Positions 5,668 to 57,518 of a stretch of DNA of 64,000 nucleotides are shown here, in pieces. The notes beneath the pieces are model-generated. The model was not told the origin of the DNA and did not search any database. It saw only the letters and a list, made by a program, of their open reading frames with translations. Origin of the DNA: Heterodontus francisci (Eukaryota); assembly GCF_036365525.1 (NCBI RefSeq), contig NC_090371.1, forward strand, positions 164,225,307 through 164,289,306, read 5' to 3'. A program made the position numbers and the translations under genes. Within the stretch, counting starts at the first letter, position 1, and each line of letters begins with the position of its first letter.

Positions 5668-5940
5668 CAGGCATCTGCAAACTTTGTGGGAACACCACCA
5701 TCTGCAAGTTCCCTTCCAAACCACACACCATCCTGACTTCGAACTATATCGCCAATCCTTCAGTGTCACTGGGTCAACATCCTGGAACTCCCTCCCTAAC
5801 AGCACTGTGGGTGTACCTACACCATATGGACTGCAGCTGCTCAAGATGGCAGCTCACCACCTTCTCAAGGGCAATTAGGGATGGCAATAAATGCTGGTGT
5901 TGCCAACAACATTCACATCCAATAAATGAATAAAAATAAA
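5668..5940 (+). mobile_element. 3' end of the tRNA-headed LINE family (see 45720-48956)
   Basis: GGGAACACCACCATCTGCAAGTTCCC...CAAGGGCAATTAGGGATGG...CACATCC + ATGAATAAAA tail. Confidence 0.8.
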
Positions 5941-6632: not shown

Positions 6633-6945
6633 TTTTTTTATTCATTCATGGGATCTGGGCATTTATTGCCCATCCCTAATTGCCCATGAGAAGGTGGTGG
6701 AAAGCCACTCTCTTGAACAACTGCAGTCTATGTGGTGTAGGTACACCCACAGTGCTGCTAGGGAGAGAGTTCCAGGATTTTGACCCAGCAACAGTAAAGG
6801 AGCAGCGATATTGTTCCAAGTCAGAATGGTGTGTGACTTGGAGCGGAACTTGCAGGTGGTGGTATTTCGATGCATCTGTTGCCCTCCTCTTTCTAGGTGA
6901 TAGAGGTCGTGGGTTTGGAAGGTGCTGTCGACGGAGCCAAAAGGC
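6633..6945 (-). mobile_element. 3' end of the tRNA-headed LINE family
   Basis: Matches 45720-46030 (TTTTTTTATTCATTCATGGGAT...GGTTTGGAAGGTGCTGTC). Confidence 0.8.
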
Positions 6946-16189: not shown

Positions 16190-17030
16190 AAAAAAATTAT
16201 TTGTTCTTGGGATGTGAGTGTCACTGGCAAGGCCAACAGTTATTGCCCATCCCCAATTGCCCTTGAGCAGGTAGTGGTGAGCCACCTTCGAGTCATAGTC
16301 ATAGAGAGATACAGCACTGAAACAGGCCCTTCGGCCTACCGAGTCTATGCCAACCAACAACCACCCATTTATACTAATATTCCCTACTACATCCCCACCT
16401 TCCCTTAATTCTCCTGCCGACAATAGGGGCAATTTACCATGGCCAATTTACCTGCAGGTTTTTGGCTGTGGGAGGAAACCGGAGCACCCGTAGAAAACCC
16501 ACGCGGTCACGGAGAACTTGTAAACTCCGCACAAGCAGTACCTAGAACTGAACCCAGGTTGCTGGAGCTGTGAGGCTGCGGTGCTACCCACTGCGCTGCC
16601 CATCTTGAACTGCTGCAGTCTATCTGGTGTAGGTACACGCACAGTGCAGTTATGAAGGAATTTCCAGGATTTTGTTCCAGCGACAGTGAAGGAACGGCAA
16701 TATAATTCCAAGTCAGGATGTTGTGTGGCTTGGAGGGGAGCATGCAGGCGGTGGTTCTGCCCTTGTCCTTCTGGGTGGTAGAGGTTGTGGTTTGGAAGAT
16801 GCTTGGTGAGTTGCTGCAGTGCATCTTGTAGATGGTGTACACAGCTGCCACTGTGTCGATGGTGGAGGGAGTGAATGTTGAAGTTGTTGGATGGAGGTGC
16901 CAATCAAGTAGGCTGCTTTGTCCTGGATGGTGTCGAGCTGGTTCAAAATCCTGGAACTCCCTTCTTAACGGCATTGTTGGTGTACCTATACCCCAAGGAC
17001 TGCAGCAGCTTAAGGCAGCTCACCATCACC
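16190..17030 (-). mobile_element. 3' portion of tRNA-headed LINE family, split by an HE1 SINE, with an oppositely oriented 3' UTR piece at ~16938-17030
   Basis: Homology to 45720-46160 on both sides of the SINE. Confidence 0.75.
16290..16601 (-). mobile_element. HE1-type V-SINE
   Basis: Reverse complement of 19331-19689; CTATGA-repeat tail. Confidence 0.85.
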
Positions 17031-38202: not shown

Positions 38203-40446
38203 TCAGTGGTTTGTGAAGCAGCGCCTGGAGTGGCTATAAAGGCCAATTCTGGAGTGACAGGCTCTTCCACAGGTGCTGCAGAGAAATTTGTTTGTTGGGG
38301 CTGTTGCACAGTTGGCTCTCCCCTTGCGCCTCTGTCTTTGTTCCTGCCAACTACTAAGTCTCTTCGACTCGCCACAATTTAGCCCTGTCTTTATGGCTGC
38401 CCGCCAGCTCTGGCGAATGCTGGCAACTGACTCCCACGACTTGTGATCAATGTCACACGATTTCATGTCGCGTTTGCAGACGTCTTTATAACGGAGACAT
38501 GGACGGCCGGTGGGTCTGATACCAGTGGCGAGCTCGCTGTACAATGTGTCTTTGGGGATCCTGCCATCTTCCATGCGGCTCACATGGCCAAGCCATCTCA
38601 AGCGCCGCTGACTCAGTAGTGTGTACAAGTTGGGGATGTTGGCCGCTTCAAGGACTTCTGTGTTGGAGATATAGTCCTGCCACCTGATGCCAAGTATTCT
38701 CCGAAGGCAGCGAAGATGGAATGAATTGAGACGTCGCTCTTGGCTGGCATACGTTGTCCAGGCCTCGCTGCCGTAGAGCAAGGTACTGAGGACACAGGCC
38801 TGATACACTCGGACTTTTGTGTTCCGTGTCAGTGCGCCATTTTCCCACACTCTCTTGGCCAGTCTGAACATAGCAGTGGAAGCCTTACCCATGCGCTTGT
38901 TGATTTCTGCATCTAGAGACAGGTTACTGGTGATAGTTGAGCCTAGGTAGGTGAACTCTTGAACCACTTCCAGAGCGTGGTCGCCAATATTGATGGATGG
39001 AGCATTTCTGACATCCTGCCCCATGATGTTCGTTTTCTTGAGGCTGATGGTTAGGCCAAATTCATTGCAGGCAGACGCAAACCTGTCGATGAGACTCTGC
39101 AGGCATTCTTCAGTGTGAGATGTTAAAGCAGCATCGTCAGCAAAGAGGAGTTCTCTGATGAGGACTTTCCGTACTTTGGACTTCGCTCTTAGACGGGCAA
39201 GGTTGAACAACCTGCCCCCTGATCTTGTGTGGAGGAAAATTCCTTCTTCAGAGGATTTGAACGCATGTGAAAGCAGCAGGGAGAAGAAAATCTCAAAAAG
39301 TGTGGGTGCGAGAACACAGCCCTGTTTCACACCACTCAGGATAGGAAAGGGCTCTGATGAGGAGCCACCATGTTGAATTGTGCCTTTCATATTGTCATGG
39401 AATGAGGTGATGATACTTAGTAGCTTTGGTGGACATCCGATCTTTTCTAGTAGTCTGAAGAGACCACGTCTGCTGACGAGGTCAAAGGCTTTGGTGAGAT
39501 CAATGAAAGCAATGTAGAGGGGCATCTGTTGTTCACAGCATTTCTCCTGTATCTGACGAAGGGAGAACAGCATGTCGATAGTCGATCTCTCTGCACGAAA
39601 GCCACACTGTGCCTCAGGGTAGACGCGCTCGGCCAGCTTCTGGAGCCTGTTCAGAGCGACTCGAGCAAAGACTTTCCCCACTATGCTGAGCAGGGAGATT
39701 CCACGGTAGTTGTTGCAGTCACCGCGGTCACCTTTGTTTTTATAGAGGGTGATGATGTTGGCATCGCGCATGTCCTGGGGTACTGCTCCCTCGTCCCAGC
39801 ACAGGCATAGCAGTTCATGTAGTGCTGAGAGTATAGCAGGCTTGGCACTCTTGATTATTTCAGGGGTAATGCTGTCCTTCCCAGGGGCTTTTCCGCTGGC
39901 TAGGGAATCAATGGCATCACTGAGTTCCGATTTGGTTGGCTGTATGTCCAGCTCATCCATGACTGGTAGAGGCTGGGCTGCATTGAGGGCAGTCTCAGTG
40001 ACAGCATTCTCCCTGGAGTACAGTTCTAGGTAGTGCTCAACCCAGCGGTCCATCTGTTTGCGTTGGTCAGTGATTATGTCCCCCGATTTAGATTTGAGGG
40101 GGGTGATCTTCTTGATGGTTGGCCCAAGAGCTCTCTTCATGCCATCATACATTCCTCTGATGTTTCCGGTGTCTGAGGCCAGCTGAATATGACTGCATAG
40201 GTGTTGCCAGTAGTCGTTTGCGCAACGCCTAGCTGTTCTTTGTGCAGTACTTCTGGCTGCTTTAAGTGCTGCGGATGTTAAATCGCTGGGGGCTTTCTTG
40301 TAGTTCAAAAGTGCAATGCGCTTAGCGGCTATGACAGGTTCCAGCTCTTCATTATGAGATTGAAACCAGTCTGCATTTCTCTTCGCACTTTTGCCGTAGG
40401 TGGTCAAAGCTGACTCATAGATGGCGTCTCTGATGTGGGCCCACTT
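38203..40446 (-). CDS. RTE polyprotein, RT + C-terminal C2H2 zinc finger (747 aa, open)
   Basis: NYRGISLLS, AFIDLTKAFD, GVKQGCVLAP, LLFADD, FTYLGS, CSTCGRACHSRIGLYSH. Confidence 0.92.
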   Translation of the reverse strand, partial: KWAHIRDAIYESALTTYGKSAKRNADWFQSHNEELEPVIAAKRIALLNYKKAPSDLTSAALKAARSTAQRTARRCANDYWQHLCSHIQLASDTGNIRGMYDGMKRALGPTIKKITPLKSKSGDIITDQRKQMDRWVEHYLELYSRENAVTETALNAAQPLPVMDELDIQPTKSELSDAIDSLASGKAPGKDSITPEIIKSAKPAILSALHELLCLCWDEGAVPQDMRDANIITLYKNKGDRGDCNNYRGISLLSIVGKVFARVALNRLQKLAERVYPEAQCGFRAERSTIDMLFSLRQIQEKCCEQQMPLYIAFIDLTKAFDLVSRRGLFRLLEKIGCPPKLLSIITSFHDNMKGTIQHGGSSSEPFPILSGVKQGCVLAPTLFEIFFSLLLSHAFKSSEEGIFLHTRSGGRLFNLARLRAKSKVRKVLIRELLFADDAALTSHTEECLQSLIDRFASACNEFGLTISLKKTNIMGQDVRNAPSINIGDHALEVVQEFTYLGSTITSNLSLDAEINKRMGKASTAMFRLAKRVWENGALTRNTKVRVYQACVLSTLLYGSEAWTTYASQERRLNSFHLRCLRRILGIRWQDYISNTEVLEAANIPNLYTLLSQRRLRWLGHVSRMEDGRIPKDTLYSELATGIRPTGRPCLRYKDVCKRDMKSCDIDHKSWESVASIRQSWRAAIKTGLNCGESKRLSSWQEQRQRRKGRANCATAPTNKFLCSTCGRACHSRIGLYSHSRRCFTNH

Positions 40447-42247: not shown

Positions 42248-44832
42248 CTTCTTTGGCCTCCTTGTCTTGAGAGACAATGGGTAAGCGCCTGGAGGTGGTC
42301 AGTGGTTTGTGAAGCAACGCCTGGAGTGGCTATAAAGGCCAATTCTAGAGTGACAGACTCTTCCACAGGTGCTGCAGATAAAATTGGTTGTCGGGGCTGT
42401 TACACAGTTGGCTCTCACCTTGCGCTTCTGTCTTTTTTCCTGCCAACTGCTAAGTCTCTTCGACTTGCCACATTTTAGCCCCGCCTTTATGGCTGCCCGC
42501 CAGCTCTGGCGATCGCTGGCAACTGACTCCCACGACTTGTGGTCAATATCACAGGACTTCATGTTGCGTTTGCAGACATCTTTAAAGCGGAGACATGGAT
42601 GGCCAGTGGATCTGATGCCAGTGACGAGCTTGCTGTACGATGCGTCCTTGGGGATCCTGCCATCTTCCATGCAGCTCACATGGCCAAACCATCTCTGGTG
42701 CCGCTGGCTCAGTAGGGTGTATATGCTGGGGATGTTGGCCGCCTCGAGGACTTCCGTGTTGGAGATGCGGTCCTGCCACCTGATGCCAAGGATTCTCCGG
42801 AGGCAGCGAAGATGGAATGAATTGAGACGTCGCTCTTGGCTGACATGCATTGTCCAGGCCTCGCTGCCGTAGAGCAAGGTACTGAGGGCACAGGCTTGAT
42901 ACACTCGGACTTTTGTGTTCCGTGTCAGTGCGCCATTTTCCCACACCCTCTTGGCCAGTCTGGACATAGCAGCAGACACCTTTCCCATGCGCTTGTTGAT
43001 TTCTGCATCGAGAGACATGTTACTGGTGATAGTTGAGCCTAGGTAGGTGAACTCTTGAACCACTTCCAGAGCGTGGTCGTCGATATTGATGGATGGAGCA
43101 TTTTGACATCCTGTCCCATGATGTTCGTTTTCTTGAGGCTGATGGTTAGGCCAAACTTGTTGCAGGCAGCCGCAATCCTGTCCATGAGTCTCTGCAGACA
43201 CTCTCTTCAGTGTGAGATGTCAATGCAGCATTGTCAGCAAAGAGGAGTTCCCTGATTAGGACTTTCCATACTTTGGTCTTCGCTCTTAGACGGGCAAGGT
43301 TGAACAACCTGCCACTGATCCTGTGTGGAGGAAAATTCCTTCCGAAGACTTGAACGCATGTGAGAGCAGCAGGGAGAAAAAGATCCCCAACAGTGTAGGT
43401 GCGAAAACAGAGCCCTGTTTCACGCCACTCAGAATAGGAAAGGGGTCTGATGAGGCGCCGCTATGCTTTCATATTGTCATGGAATGAGGTGATACTTAGT
43501 AGCTTTGGTGGACATCCAATCTTTTCTAGTAATCTGAAGAGACCACATCTGCTGATGAGGTCAAAGGCTTTGGTGAGATCAATGAAAGCAACGTAGAGGG
43601 GCGTCTGATGTTCGCGGCATTTTTCCTGTAGCTGGTGAAGGGAGAACAGCATGTCAATGGTGGATCTCTCTGCTCGAAAGCCACACTGTGCCTTAGGGTA
43701 GACACGCTCAGCCAGTTTCTGGAGCCTGTTTAAAGCGACTTGAGCGAAGACTTCCCTACTATGCTGAGCAGGGAGACTCCACGGTAGTTGTTGCAGTCAC
43801 CCTTGTTATAGAGGGTGATGATATTGGCATCGCGCATGTCCTATGGTACTGCTCCCTCGTCCCTGCTTGAGTTGTGTACCTAACATAACCTCTGCATCAC
43901 CAACTCGTTCTTTCATACTGAACCCTGTCACCAGGTTTCTTGGAGGCACCCAAGATCACATCATTGGCACCAGCTGGACCTCGTCGTCACAAGGCGAGCC
44001 TCTTTAAATAGCGTTCAAATCACACACAGCTTCCACAGTGCGGACTGCGACACCGACCACTCCCTGATGTTTTAGCAAGGTTAGACTTGAACCAAAGAAG
44101 CTGCATCACTCCAAGCAGAAGGGCCGCCCACGCATCAACACTAACAGAATTTCTTATTCACAGCTGTTATGTAAGTTTCTAAATTCACTTGAAAAAGCCC
44201 TTCAAAACACTCCTACAGGGGATGCAGAGACCAAGTGGGCCCACATCAGAGATGCCGTCTATGACTCCGCAATGACCACCTATAGCAAACATGTGAAGCA
44301 GAATGCAGACTGGTTTCAATCTCCCTTTTTTGAAGAGCTGGAACCTGTCATAGCCGCTAAGTGCATTGCACTGCTGAACTACAAGAAAGCCCCCAGCGAG
44401 TTAACGTCCGTAGCACTTAAAGTAGCTAGAAGCGCTGCACAAAGAACACCCAGGCGCTGCACAAATGACTACTGGCAACACCTATGCAGTCATATTCAGC
44501 TGGCCTCTGACACCGGAAACATCAAGAAGCTCGCCCCCTGAAGTCTAAATCAGGGGACATGATCACTGACCAGCACAAGCCAATGGACCGCTGGGTGGAG
44601 CACTACCTAGAACTGTACTCCAGGGAGCATGTTGTCACTGATACCGCCCTCAATGCAGCCCAGTCTCTGCCAGTCATGGATGAGCTGGACGTACAACCAA
44701 CAAAATCGGAACTCAGTGATGCCATTGATTCTCTAGCCAGTGGAAAAGCCCCTGGGAAGGACGGCATTACCCCTGAAATAATCAAGAGTGCCAAGCCTGC
44801 TATACTTTCAGCACTCTACGAACTGCTTTGCC
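42248..44832 (-). mobile_element. Older RTE-clade LINE, 5'-truncated and 5'-inverted, decayed
   Basis: 42248-43862 on minus (tail, zinc finger, RT); 43863-44832 on plus (LLELCT..NLC to YELLC); frameshifts; degenerate TSD AAATTATTGAT/AAATCGTTGCT. Confidence 0.9.
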
Positions 44833-45560: not shown

Positions 45561-45719
45561 TCCTATAGTAAGTAAATCATGGGAAGTTTCACTTTTTTCC
45601 CTCAAATTTGGGAGGAAATCCATTTTAATCAATTCATGGCCCCTAAAGAATCTGGGAATTTACTGGTGAAAGTTGGGGAAAAACTGATTGTAAAGGTCTC
45701 TATGTATATGTTACATCAC

Positions 45720-48700
45720 TTTTTTTTCATTCATTCATGGGATGTGGGAATTGCTCACATTTATTTCCCATCTCTAATTGCCCTTGAGAAGGTGGTGGTG
45801 AGCTGCTGCCTTGAACCGCTGCAGTCCATGAAGTGTAGGTACACCCACAGTGCTGTTAGGAAGAGAGTTCCAAGATTTTGACCCAGCGACAGTGAAAGAA
45901 CGGTGATCTAGTTCCAAATCAGGATGCTGTGTGACTTGGAGGGGAACTTGCAGGTGGTGGTGTTCCCATGCATTTGCGGCCCTTGTCCTAATTGGTAGAA
46001 GTTGCGGGTTTGGAAGGTGCTGTCAAAGGAGCCTTGATGCGTTGCTGCAGTGCATCTTGTAGATGGTACACACTGGCACCCCATCCACAAACATTCGCTC
46101 CCTTCACCGACGCACAGTGGCAGCAATCAAGAGGGCTGCTTTGTCCTCTGGTGTCGAGCTTCTTGAGTGTTGTTGGAGCTGCACCTATCCAGGAAAGTGG
46201 AGAGTATTCCATCACACTCCTGACTTGTGCCTTTGTAGATGGTGGATAGGCTTTGGGGAGTCGGGAGATGCATTACTCGCCGCAGGATTCCTAACCTCTG
46301 ACCTGCTCTTGTAGCCACGGTATTTAGATGGTTACTCCAGTTCAGTTTCTGGTCAATGGTAGTCCCTAGGATGTTGATTAGTGTGGGATTCAGCGATCGT
46401 AATGCCATTGAATGTCAAGAGTGAATGATTGGATTCTTTCTTGTTGGAGATGGTTATTGCCTGGCACTTGTGTAGTGTGAATGTTACTTGCTACTTTTCA
46501 GCCCAAGCCTGGATGTTGTCCATGTCTTACTGCATTTCTACACAGACTGCTTCAGTATCAGGGGTCACGAATGGTCCTGAACATTGTGCAATCATCAGCG
46601 AACAGCCCCACTTCTGACCTTATGATTGAAGGAAGGTCATTGATGAAGCAGCTGAAGATGGTTGGGCCCAGGGCACTACCCCGAGGAACGCCTGAAGTGA
46701 TGTCCTGGAGCTCCGATGATTGTCCTGCAACAACCATAACCATCTTTCTTTGCGTTAGGTATGACTCTTCCAACCAGCGGAGAGTTTTCCCCCTAATTCC
46801 CATTGACTTCAGTTTTGCTAGGGCTCCTTGATGCCATACTCGGTCAAATGCTGCCTTGATGTCAAGGGCAGTCACTCTCAGCTCACCTCTTGAGTTCAGC
46901 TCTTTTGTCCATGTTTGAACCAAGGCTGTATTGAGGTCAGGAGCTGAGTGGCCCTGGCGGAACCCACAGTGAGCGTCACTGAGCAGGTTATTGCTAAGCA
47001 AGTGCTTCTTGATAGCACTGTTGATGACGTCTGCCATCACTTTACTGATGATTGAGAGTAGACTGATGGGGCGGTAATTGGCCGGGTTGGACTTGTCTTG
47101 GTTTTTGTGTACAAGACATACCTGGGGAATTTTCCACATTTCCGGGTAAGTGCCAGTGTTGTAGCTGTACTAGAACAGATTGGCTAGGGGCACGGCAAGT
47201 TCTGGAACACTGGTCTTCAGTACTATTGCTGGAATATTGTCAGGGCCTGTAACCTTTGCAGTATCCAGTGCCTTCAGTCGTTTCTTGATATCATGCAGGG
47301 TGAATTGAATTCTCTGAGGTCTGGCATCTGTGATGCTGGGGACTTCAGGAGGAGGCAGAGATGGATCACCAACTCGGCACTTCATTGCTGAAGATTGTTG
47401 CAAATGCTTCAGCCTTCTCTTTTGCACTGATGTGCTGGGCTCCCCCATCATTGAGGATGGGGATTTTGTGGAGCCACCTGCTCCAGTTAGTAGTTTAATG
47501 GTCCACCACCATTCACTGCTGGATGTAGCTGGACTGCAGAGCTTTGATCTGATCACTTAGGTGTGTCTATTGCATGCTGCTTATGCAGTTTGGCATGCAA
47601 GCAGTCCTCTGTTGTAGCTTCACCAGGTTGACCCCTCATTTCTAGGTATGTCTGTTGCTGCTCCTAGCATGCCCTCCTGGACTCTTCATTGAACCAGGGT
47701 TGGTCTCCTGGCTTGATGGTAATGGTAGAGTGGGGGATAGGCTGGGCCATGAGGTTATAGATTGTGGTTGAGTACAATTCTGCTGCTGATGGCACACGGC
47801 GCCTCATGGATGCCAAGTTTTGCATTGCGAGATCTGTTCGAAATCTATTTAGCACGGTGATAGTGCCACACAACACAATGGATGGTGACCTCGTCTCCAC
47901 AAGGGCTGTGCAGTGGTCACTTCTACCAATATTGTCATGGGCAGATGCATCTGCAGCAGGCAGATTGATGAGGACGAGGTCAAGTATGGTTTTTCCCTCT
48001 CGTTGGTTCCCTCACCACTGCCGCAGACCCAGTCTAGCAGCTATGTCCTTTAGGACTCAGCCAGCTGGGTCAGTAGTGGTGCTACAGAGCCACTCTTGTT
48101 GATGGACATTGAAGTCCCCCACCCAGAGTACATTCTGCGCCCTTGCCACCCTCGGTGCTTCCTCCAAGTGGTGTTCAACATGGTGGAGTACTGAGTCATC
48201 AGCTGAGGGAGGGCAGTAGGTGGTAATCAGCAGGAGGCTTCCTTGCCCATGTTTGACCTGATGCCATGAGACTTCATGGGGTCCAGAGTTGGTGTTGAGG
48301 CCTCCCAGGGCAACTCCGTCCCGACTCTGTACTACTGTGCCATCCCCTCTGCTGGGTCTGTCCTGCCTGTGGGACAGGACATACCCGGGGATGGTGATGT
48401 CTGGGACATTGTCTGTAAGGTATGATATCGTGAGTATGACTATTGCTTGCTGTTGCTTGACTAGTCTGTGGGGCAGCTCTCCCAACTTTGGTACAAGCCC
48501 CCAGCTGTTAATAAGGAAGACTTTGCAGGGTTGACAGGGCTGGGTTTGCCGTTGTCGTTTCCATTGCCTAGGTTGATGCCGGGTGGTCCGTCCAGTTTCA
48601 TTCTTTTTTTATTGACTTCATAGCGGTTAGTTACAACTGAGTGGCTTTCTAGGCCATTTCAGAGGGCATGTATGAGTCACCCACATTGCTGTGGGTCTTG

Positions 48701-48956
48701 AGTCACATGTAGGCCAGACTAGGTAAGGACAGCAGATTTCCTTCCCTTAAGGACATGAGTGAACTAGGTGGTTTTTTACAACAATCGACAATGGTTTAAT
48801 GGCCATCATTAGACTAGCTTTTTAATTCCAGATTTATTAATTGAATTCAAATTCCACCTGCTGCTGTGGTGGGATTCAAACCCATGTCCCCAGCATAATA
48901 CCCTGGGTCTCTGGATTTCTAGTCCAGGGACAATACCACTACGCCACTGCCTCCCC
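45720..48956 (-). mobile_element. Apparently full-length ~3.2 kb LINE (AP endonuclease + RT, no ORF1) with a tRNA-derived SINE-like 5' head; decayed copy
   Basis: Head GGGGAGGCAG-TGGCGTAGTGG...GGTTTGAATCCC; APE motifs KVFLINSWGL, LLITTYCPP, WVGDFN; RT motifs PANYRPISLLS, LDIKAAFDRVWH, GVPRGSALGP, LFADD; tail ATGAATGAATGAAAAAAAA. Confidence 0.88.
48871..48946 (-). promoter_or_regulatory. Type 2 RNA polymerase III internal promoter (A and B boxes) at the LINE 5' end
   Basis: A box TGGCGTAGTGG at 48946-48936; B box GGTTTGAATCCC at 48882-48871 (one change from GGTTCGAATCCC, at a CpG). Confidence 0.75.
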
Positions 48957-49327
48957 TGTCTGTGGATGAGCAATGTCTGCATTATCCAATAATCTGCTAA
49001 AACACTGATGCTGAATGTTGTTATCTAACAGCTTTATGATCATACTGTTAATCTTGTGAAAAGCATATTTTCTTTAATAATCTGTTAGTGCACTGATATT
49101 CCATGTTAATATTGCTACTGAAATGTGGACTATATGTTCCAAAGCAAATGTTGACCCTGATTCTCCAGCAGAATTATTAAAAGTTGAATCTGATAAAATG
49201 GTCTTGGATTTATTGATGCCAACTTTTGCAATTTTACAGATGCCATTATTATGTTTGTTTTCTTATCTCCAAGCTAATGCTAATATTTCTTTTGAAGTGA
49301 CTAAAGTGCTGTTCCATCATCCCCCAG

Positions 49328-56035: not shown

Positions 56036-57518
56036 AGCAGGACTAGCTGTGACCCTAGCGAAACTGTTCCAGTACAGCGACAACACTGCCTCTACCTGAC
56101 AATGTGGAGGATTGCCCAGGTGTGTTCTATCCACAAAAAGCAGGGCAAATCCAACCCGGCCAATTACCGCCCTATCAGTCTACTCTTGATCATCAGCAAA
56201 GTGATGGAAGGTGTCGTCAACAGTGCTATCAAGTGCCACTTAAAAGATACCTCCTCACCAATGCTCAGCTTGGGTTCCGCCAGGGTCATTTGGCTCCTGA
56301 TCTAATTACAGCCTTGGTCCAAACAGGGACATAACAGCTGAACTCGAGGTGAGAGTGATTGCCCTTGATATCAAGACAGTATTTGACAGAGTGTGACATC
56401 AAGGAGTCTGAGCCAAACCTCAGTCAATGGAAACCAAGGGGAAACCTCTGCACTGGTTGGAGTCATATCTAGCACAAAGGAAGATGGTTGTGGTTGTTGG
56501 AAGCCAATCATGTGAGCCCCAGGGTATTGTTGAAAGAGTTCCTCGGGGTAATGTCAGAGGCCCAACCATCTTCAGCTGCTTCATAAATGACCTCCCTCCC
56601 TCATGAGGTCAGAAGTGGGGAGTTTTGCAGATGATTGCACAATGTTCAGTACTATTCGCAACTCCTCATACTGGAGCAGTCCGTGTTCGTATACAGCAAG
56701 AATTGGACAGCATTCAGGCTTGGGCTGATAAGTGGCAAGTAACATTAGTGCCACACAAGTGCCAAACAATGACTATCTCCAATAAGAGAGAATCTAAACA
56801 TTTCCCCAACAGTTAATGGCATTACCATCGCTGAATTCCCCCACGATCAACATCCTGGGTGTGACCAAAGACCAGAAACTGAACTGGACCAGCCGCATCA
56901 ATACTGTGACGACAAGAGCATGTCAGAGACTGGGAATTCTGTGACGAGTAATCCACATCCTGACTTCCCAAAGCCTGTACACCATCTACAAGACACAAGT
57001 CAGGAGTGTGATGTAATACTGTCCACTGCCTGGATGGTGCATCCAACAACATTCAAGAAGTTCGACCATATCCAGGACAAATCGGCCTGCCTGATTGGCA
57101 CCCCTTCCACCACCTTGAACGTTCACTCCCTCTACCGCCGACCCACAGTGGCAGCAGTGTGTACAATATACAAGATGCACTGCAGCAACTCTGCACGCCT
57201 CCTTCGACAGCACCTTCCAAACCCGCAACCTCTTCCACCTCGAAGGACAAGGACAGTCAATGCATGGGTACACCACCATCTGCAAGTTCCCCTTCAAATC
57301 ACACACCATCCTGACTTGGAAATATATCTCCGTTCCTTCACTGTCGCTGGATCAAAATATTGGAACTCCCTCCCTAACAGAACTGTGGATGTACCCGCAC
57401 CAGATGGACTGCAGCGGTTCAAGAAAGCAGCTCACCACCTCCTCAAGGGCAATTGGGGATGGGCAACAAATGCTGGCCTTGGCAGTGATACCCACATCCC
57501 ATGAAAGAATAAAAAAAA
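56036..57518 (+). mobile_element. 5'-truncated copy of the tRNA-headed LINE family, inserted in an old minus-strand CR1 (~55940-58780)
   Basis: KSNPANYRPISLL, FADDCTMF, same 3' UTR and CACATCCCATGAAAGAATAAAAAAA tail as 45720-48956. Confidence 0.85.

Follow-up and report, generated by a model that had tools for sequence, protein, structure and literature searches.

The window analysed here, a stretch of 64,000 nucleotides from Heterodontus francisci (contig NC_090371.1), contains on its minus strand a LINE copy that begins with a tRNA-derived head; the features are collected in Table 1. An earlier interpretation made from the letters alone, hereafter the sequence-only reading, had proposed a tRNA-like head on this strand, followed by endonuclease and reverse transcriptase (RT) coding sequence without an ORF1. 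Both parts of this description are correct. ARAGORN finds a single tRNA-like gene in the window, at 48862-48950 on the minus strand, and the A and B boxes can be placed; the broken frames contain the Pfam domains Exo_endo_phos_2 and RVT_1, and there is no ORF1, the leader measuring 353 nt and the longest AUG-started frame before the ORF about 20 codons. The copy differs by 8% from the column majority of its family and carries stops and frameshifts; its head reads as Ser(AGA), and as Thr(AGT) in less-decayed copies. The sole Rfam hit is a weak one to tRNA-Sec, which at 26 bits does not reach the gathering score, and no ribozyme family was matched in the element.

Table 1. Features of the tRNA-headed LINE copy and of its sister copy (positions in the window)
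Feature	Position	Strand	Basis
Full-length but decayed single-ORF Zenon-type LINE copy	45720..48956	-	Alignment to the family; first 400 nt against the consensus by eye
tRNA-derived head	48862..48956	-	ARAGORN; 5' end of the family 10 nt upstream of the A box
A box	48936-48946	-	Matched in 52/65 family heads
B box, CpG-decayed in this copy	48871-48882	-	Among 65 heads, 44 intact and 9 CpG-decayed
Conserved non-coding leader segment, retained in SINE derivatives	48635..48771	-	Comparison of old and young subfamilies
46-codon upstream ORF, out of frame, from AUG 48599-48601; dispensable	48461..48601	-	Copy alignments
Broken AP-endonuclease and RT frame with basic N-terminus, lacking an in-frame AUG before the endonuclease core	45774..48602	-	Pfam, frames
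AATAAA about 40 nt before the tail	45760..45765	-	Intact in 52/70 family tails
(TGAA)n and A tail; in other copies a T1-T11 run between the two	45720..45741	-	Tail comparison
Sister copy, 5'-truncated, older, 78% identical, one T4	56038..57518	+	Alignment, T counts

The element belongs to a LINE family of 3.28 kb with a single ORF for endonuclease and RT, present in thousands of copies. Exo_endo_phos, Exo_endo_phos_2 and RVT_1 are all found by Pfam in one natural frame of 743 aa, so that AP endonuclease (APE) and RT belong to one ORF; this is the longest natural frame, and an intact copy of the family was not found. Like a tRNA SINE (SINE2), the element has a 5' tRNA-derived head with A and B boxes, but at 3.28 kb it is neither non-coding nor short, and these two traits of the class are seen only in its short derivatives. 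The family corresponds to the Zenon LINEs described from elasmobranchs by Stuart et al. 2026 (PMC13343379), as judged by eye on the first 400 nt of the rows of the supplement (30 of 41 places). The rows CarCar, HypSab, RhiTyp, ScyCan and SquAca have the same 5' sequence by eye, the same length (2.9-3.3 kb), no ORF1, APE and RT, and an A tail; over these 400 nt the element is not different from the published Zenon. In the same portion, also by eye, seven elasmobranch consensus rows begin with the same head and contain 0 T4, and the rows from hagfish (two) and coelacanth (one) have no head and do contain T4+ runs. The main text of PMC13343379 has no occurrence of the terms tRNA, promoter or polymerase III, and does not discuss the head, the purging of T-tracts, the missing AUG or the SINE derivatives; the head is apparently unremarked in a family that already has a name. 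No description of a tRNA-headed or Pol III-made LINE was found in the literature searched, which lies outside subscription journals and Repbase.

The tRNA(Thr)-like A/B-box head is the fixed 5' end of the family. A genome query made of head and ORF start, which by its design favours the junction, gave 16,900 candidates, and all the 40 matches that were scored (39 others and the copy at 45720..48956) span the head-ORF junction; 23 of the 39 others align in one piece over the full 3.2-3.3 kb. With a head-free query, giving 21 loci that correspond to 20 of the 39 matches plus the query's own locus, 17 of the 21 copies have their 5' end in the first 20 nt of the head, and the remaining 4 are cut short in the leader. 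Thus, the objection considered by the sequence-only reading, that other full-length copies might lack the head, does not apply, since with either query other copies are found to carry it. The edge is sharp: a matching A box is present in 52 of 65 heads, which show mostly G from position -10 onwards, preceded by a mixed flank, and the spacing between A box and B box is 64 nt in 41 of 44 heads. The tRNA fold is called by ARAGORN in 10 of 17 family heads besides that of the window, and the head, with a divergence of 13.7%, changes faster than the ORF. Target site duplications of at least 6 nt were found in 0 of 22 analysable full copies (mean 1.32, null 1.28). ARAGORN, which misses 7 of 17 true heads, detected tRNA heads neither at 47 metagenome loci of relatives nor at 11 control-family loci, although many of these loci may lack their 5' ends. 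The LINE-side junction between leader and ORF has at least 4,365 exact matches in the genome and control patterns have 0; these matches refute a chance SINE insertion beside a truncated LINE, as does the presence by eye of the same junction in the published consensus rows of five elasmobranch species (PMC13343379). Nothing beyond the existence of free SINE forms speaks for such an accident, whose probability is practically nil.

These free forms are frequent. A direct junction between leader and tail has at least 5,594 exact matches in the genome, with 0 for control patterns, and among 29 of 39 head-only matches that were examined 17 run on into the ORF and the other 12 pass directly to the tail, with breakpoints ranging from 322 to 462. 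The head-plus-tail forms are SINE-like internal deletions of the family that have arisen several times.

The sense strand of the element is poor in T-tracts. The plus strand of the window contains no AAAA from 45680 to 48999 (3,319 nt), which is the longest gap of this kind, the next one being 1,789 nt; on the same strand the element has 15 T4+ runs, corresponding to A4+ runs on its sense strand. The counts made by eye in the sequence-only reading hold on recounting: the sense strand has no T4 and more than ten A4+ runs, the sister copy has a single T4 at 56623, and six neighbouring LINE stretches contain 3-12 sense T4 runs each. The sister copy has 5 TTT vs 16 expected. In the family, 16 of 24 full copies are devoid of any T4, and the nine internal T4s in the 24 copies are all private except for one CpG-decay site found in two copies. 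Old and young subfamilies differ in 140 of 1,885 columns, some old loci aligning poorly; neither has a T4 by column majority and none is shared in the body, so the consensus does not contain the T4 runs that could have spoken against the proposal. The older subfamily was defined by 300 exact pattern matches in the genome. The absence of T4 is by itself a weak signal: shuffling of bases, dinucleotides or trinucleotides gives probabilities of 0.005-0.015, 0.09-0.16 and 0.23-0.68, respectively, for 0 T4 in the element, and for the natural 743-aa frame the value with synonymous shuffling is 0.093.

The wider depletion of T-tracts is instead a strong signal. Runs of three or more T number 7-10 vs about 23 expected (Poisson P 1e-4 to 1e-3), and for each of the 24 copies the observed/expected ratio (O/E) of TTT on the sense strand falls in the range 0.24-0.48. 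In the same genome, two LINE families matched in composition (T 21% and A 28%), sampled at 12 loci each, show values of 0.96-1.11 and 0.87-1.23 and 2-5 T4 per copy, and the values of a CR1 family are 1.03-1.43. A further comparison used 80 metagenome loci, 57 of which yielded a related ORF of at least 400 aa and 23 did not; TTT O/E in these ORFs has a minimum of 0.54 and a median of 1.16. For gapped motifs with four T in five positions, O/E is 0.12-0.43 in the family vs a minimum of 0.64 in these ORFs. AAA is not depleted (O/E 0.80-0.89), so that the loss is confined to T-tracts of the sense strand; avoidance of endonuclease targets was rejected as its cause, since it predicts a loss of A-runs too. 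Synonymous codon shuffling gives 6 TTT observed vs 12.9 (P 0.008), with P 0.07-0.2 for three control ORFs. Base composition fails, against matched controls, to explain the T-tract depletion. The same shuffling for the 4-of-5 T motif is not specific, because it is low in the three control ORFs as well (P <0.002 to 0.044). A low Phe content (2.3% vs a median of 3.9% in 75 proteins) contributes to the depletion, and the related 1.2-kb ORF L155 also has no T4, its contig having four T4+ runs elsewhere. Among variants in public runs (40 of 235 rows), 8 are changes to T, and none affects any of the 42 positions at which a T4 would result. Since all copies share ancestry, the depletion is close to a single evolutionary observation, albeit a well-controlled one. 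Human Pol III is halted by T4 and, to some extent, by gapped T-tracts, which are weak terminators, and not by isolated T3 (PMC3141230); the T-tract loss seen in the family corresponds to this spectrum as it is described there.

At the 3' end the family carries the AATAAA listed in Table 1. In 89 tails, the number of T between (TGAA)n and the A run is 0 (7 tails), 1 (49), 2 (12), 3 (7), 4 (3), 5 (6), 9 (3) or 11 (1), with 1 tail unparsed; the single T of 49 tails is not a terminator. T4+ occurs at this junction in 13 of 89 tails vs 2 of 89 in a flank window, and recurs only there, just before the A-tail and downstream of AATAAA. The combination of AATAAA, variable T-run and A-tail resembles the layout of T+ SINEs and fits transcription by Pol III. 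The terminators of T+ SINEs are described as shortening upon retrotransposition and lengthening again with the age of the tail, and T-elongation can arise after insertion (PMC8466645); the tail T-runs could instead be due to such post-insertion slippage.

The start of translation poses a particular problem. The leader contains two AATAAA and, in its first 345 nt, 7-11 AUGs. Counted from the first motif of the endonuclease, an in-frame Met is reached only after 131-238 codons in seven copies, at codon 26 in one copy, and is absent over 150-165 codons in two; the numerous leader AUGs and the position of this Met in the seven copies argue against cap-dependent scanning. The basic N-terminus of the ORF resembles the N-termini of related proteins. 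The sequence-only reading had taken an AUG at about 48620 as the nearest upstream one, put out of frame by an A7 run, but this is not the case: the triplet 48619-48621 is ATG in 6, ACG in 12 and ACA in 6 of 24 copies, the AUG being a product of CpG decay and not a family feature, and the nearest upstream AUG is 48599-48601, which is present in 23 of 24 young copies, is offset from the endonuclease frame independently of the A7 run, and is replaced by ATA in 24 of 27 copies of the older subfamily. The A7 argument applies therefore to the copy at 45720..48956 alone. Substitutions between subfamilies in the endonuclease-RT frame are 19 synonymous to 17 non-synonymous and, in one 650-nt stretch, 19 to 7, vs 6 to 30 and 1 to 25 in the frame of the AUG; the endonuclease-RT ORF is under purifying selection between subfamilies, and these ratios indicate that both lineages translated it although it has no AUG of its own.

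The leader segment 186-325 differs between old and young subfamilies in 5 of 140 columns (3.6%) vs 5.7-7.2% in the ORF, and the conserved part listed in Table 1 may represent a candidate translation or RNA-binding element; no leader fold stands out against shuffles as IRES-like (z from -1.7 to +1.0). Two other solutions were considered and discarded, the second of them as a general mechanism. Read-through of a mini-ORF AUG-GCC-UAG is in frame only in the A5 subfamily, and is out of frame in seven copies with a longer A run and, by eye, in the published dogfish row. A -1 frameshift from AUG 48601 through the heptamer CGGAAAC lacks a consistent stimulator fold, and the old subfamily has ATA at this AUG in 24 of 27 copies. 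A further candidate is a conserved near-cognate start: TTG in old and ATA in young copies occupy the same position, but this is not kept in several published rows (by eye). In reporter systems, translation of Pol III transcripts is possible, and L1 ORF2 is able to start without AUG. A precedent is also offered by R2 RNA, which is made by Pol I, is uncapped and is proposed to use an IRES-like initiation (PMC6765202).

Taken as a whole, these features slightly favour an autonomous Zenon-type LINE whose 3.3-kb RNA would be made by Pol III from the A and B boxes and translated without cap or AUG. The three sequence-level objections anticipated by the sequence-only reading did not materialise, whereas its argument on the AUG at about 48620 holds for the copy at 45720..48956 alone; new support for Pol III comes from AATAAA with a T-run before the A-tail and from SINE derivatives with the same head. 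TFIIIC and Pol III would initiate in the G run that lies 10 nt upstream of the A box, where a start from a type-2 Pol III promoter is expected; the polymerase could cross 3.2 kb because T4 and gapped T-tracts are purged, and would stop at the tail T-run or in the flank, the RNA being polyadenylated through AATAAA as in T+ SINEs. Ribosomes may enter internally near the A-rich tract that follows the conserved leader and begin at a non-AUG codon, as proposed for R2 RNA; the protein would then use target-primed reverse transcription to copy its own RNA, and would mobilise the internally deleted SINE forms as well. As for the origin, an ancestral elasmobranch Zenon probably captured a tRNA-SINE 5' module, given that the hagfish and coelacanth Zenon rows have no head.

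Transcription by Pol II only is an unlikely alternative, albeit one to be taken seriously. LINEs are regarded as Pol II units (PMC5786205), and the captured SINE-derived 5' module may act as, or adjoin, a Pol II promoter, U-tracts being avoided for another reason at the RNA level (splicing, decay or slippage). The T4 statistic alone, weak under dinucleotide shuffling (P 0.09-0.16), agrees with this possibility, and so does the strong 3' bias in the depth of assembled contigs from four public runs, as expected for read-through of truncated copies. On copy L032 these contigs cover all 30 bins, with loose ends at the head start. However, composition-matched LINEs of the same genome show no T-tract depletion, A and B boxes are kept at their 64-nt spacing (41/44), two AATAAA and 7-11 AUGs occur in the leader, and the start is located at the type-2 Pol III start position. 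The family and its SINE-type joint are present in 4 of 4 public runs (contigs, with small shares and an RNA status mostly guessed); these four are uninformative on start, strand or polymerase, and the 23 runs in total are all assembled contigs.

Alternatively, the roles may be split, with Pol III making the template RNA and the protein being provided in trans by capped Pol II read-through of other copies. This would account for head and T-tract purging without translation of an uncapped RNA, and the thousands of SINE derivatives show that the protein works in trans; nonetheless it is a rather doubtful solution, as the purifying selection that acted on the ORF along master lineages (in one 650-nt stretch, 19 changes are synonymous and 7 non-synonymous) is easier to understand with cis preference and a capped RNA would still face the missing in-frame AUG. 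The head could also be a processing signal, freeing the element from longer Pol II transcripts by an RNase P-like cut, similarly to the R2 ribozyme. The tRNA fold retained in 10 of 17 family heads (ARAGORN) and the uniform 5' ends are in line with this role, which is however very improbable: the tRNA called by ARAGORN starts a few bases inside the copies (at 405 in L032, where the element begins at 400-401), and the strand-specific loss of T-tracts is left unexplained. Pol III synthesis of the full-length RNA, common to the favoured explanation and to the split of roles, is on these sequence features a probable event.

The element shares traits with several known systems. T+ SINEs such as B2, Dip and Ves have a tRNA head with A/B boxes, AATAAA, a variable T-run and an A-tail (PMC8466645, PMC10572872), but are described as non-coding and a few hundred bases long, while in the Zenon element head and tail enclose 2.8 kb of coding sequence. 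R2 is likewise a single-ORF non-LTR element, and its RNA is made uncapped by a polymerase other than Pol II, with a proposed IRES-like translation, as would be the case here; unlike the Zenon element, R2 is site-specific and equipped with a different endonuclease, and its RNA is co-transcribed by Pol I and released by an HDV-like ribozyme (PMC6765202). Bipartite derivatives of Bov-A/Bov-tA, RTE, Ingi, Vingi and R2 arise by internal deletion with retention of the LINE 5' and 3' ends; in the four clades reported there, a tRNA head is added only to the non-coding form (PMC5786205), whereas in Zenon, which belongs to the CR1 group, the coding parent itself has the head. In cartilaginous fishes the tRNA-headed SINEs described are SacSINE1 (Deu, L2 tail), CmiSINE (CORE), HE1 (V, HER1 tail) and MetaSINEs (PMC5499810, PMC3747384, PMC4824008), the heads of the latter being Thr-like as in Zenon. 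By description these shark SINEs stand apart, having L2 or CR1/HER1 tails and no reported coding parent that shares the head; motif look-ups for shark SINE motifs and central domain in two supplements were negative, at the level of motifs rather than of alignment.

In the standard division LINEs are coding and transcribed by Pol II and SINEs are non-coding and transcribed by Pol III, and SINEs are held to be unable to encode a protein (PMC5786205). The structure found here is real and family-wide, and would be categorically unusual if transcription by Pol III holds, since a Pol III-run LINE of sharks and rays would break this division. On balance, its sequence makes it somewhat easier to accept than to reject that sharks and rays harbour a natural 3.3-kb coding retrotransposon that Pol III transcribes over its whole length, whose RNA is polyadenylated in the manner of T+ SINEs and translated, by way of the conserved leader, with neither cap nor AUG, and which is the direct parent of its own SINEs, that is, an autonomous SINE. 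If this is true, it would provide a natural case of a multi-kilobase Pol III mRNA, in a vertebrate LINE kept across sharks and rays, together with a new cap- and AUG-independent translation element and a direct route from LINE to SINE by simple deletion. The old question of whether Pol III transcripts serve as real mRNAs in vivo thus becomes directly testable.

Besides the Zenon copy with its tRNA-like head (45720-48956) and the 5'-truncated older copy (56038-57518), the window holds three short Zenon pieces and copies from two other LINE families (table). Zenon copies or head-plus-tail SINE forms were also found inside other Zenon copies, at the loci L055 (3695-3710), L031, L076 and L096; at L055 the overlap appears to span just a few bases, at an A-rich site.

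Zenon fragments and other LINE families in the window
Feature	Position	Strand	Loci
Short 3' fragment, Zenon family	5687-5940	+	
Short 3' fragment, Zenon family	6633-6938	-	
Short 3' fragment, Zenon family	16604-16851	-	
Very young LINE family	38689-40368	-	L200-L211
Second LINE family	42600-43800	-	L224-L235

Within the head, the hairpin of the variable arm is not the same in the L032-type subfamily, the L239/L240-type subfamily and the first 400 nt of the elasmobranch consensus rows in the PMC13343379 supplement; compared by eye, its pairing appears to be kept despite these differences. At two loci of the older subfamily (L261 and L262, about 1470-1500) the head is replaced by foreign upstream sequence common to both, perhaps because the locus was duplicated or because the two belong to a chimeric sub-lineage.

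One metagenome relative, L155, carries a 1.2-kb ORF without T4 (642-1844; TTT observed/expected 0.54); T4 runs lie directly downstream of this ORF, in a locus without its 5' end.

The second LINE family, used as a control only, has a base composition equal to that of Zenon and about 91% identity among copies. The very young family, for which RTE is the label of the sequence-only reading only, shows 98-100% identity across 1.6 kb in 39 other scored matches, and its 1,069-aa frame is intact in L201, L203, L204 and L205; because of this identity and these four intact frames, the family is probably still active.
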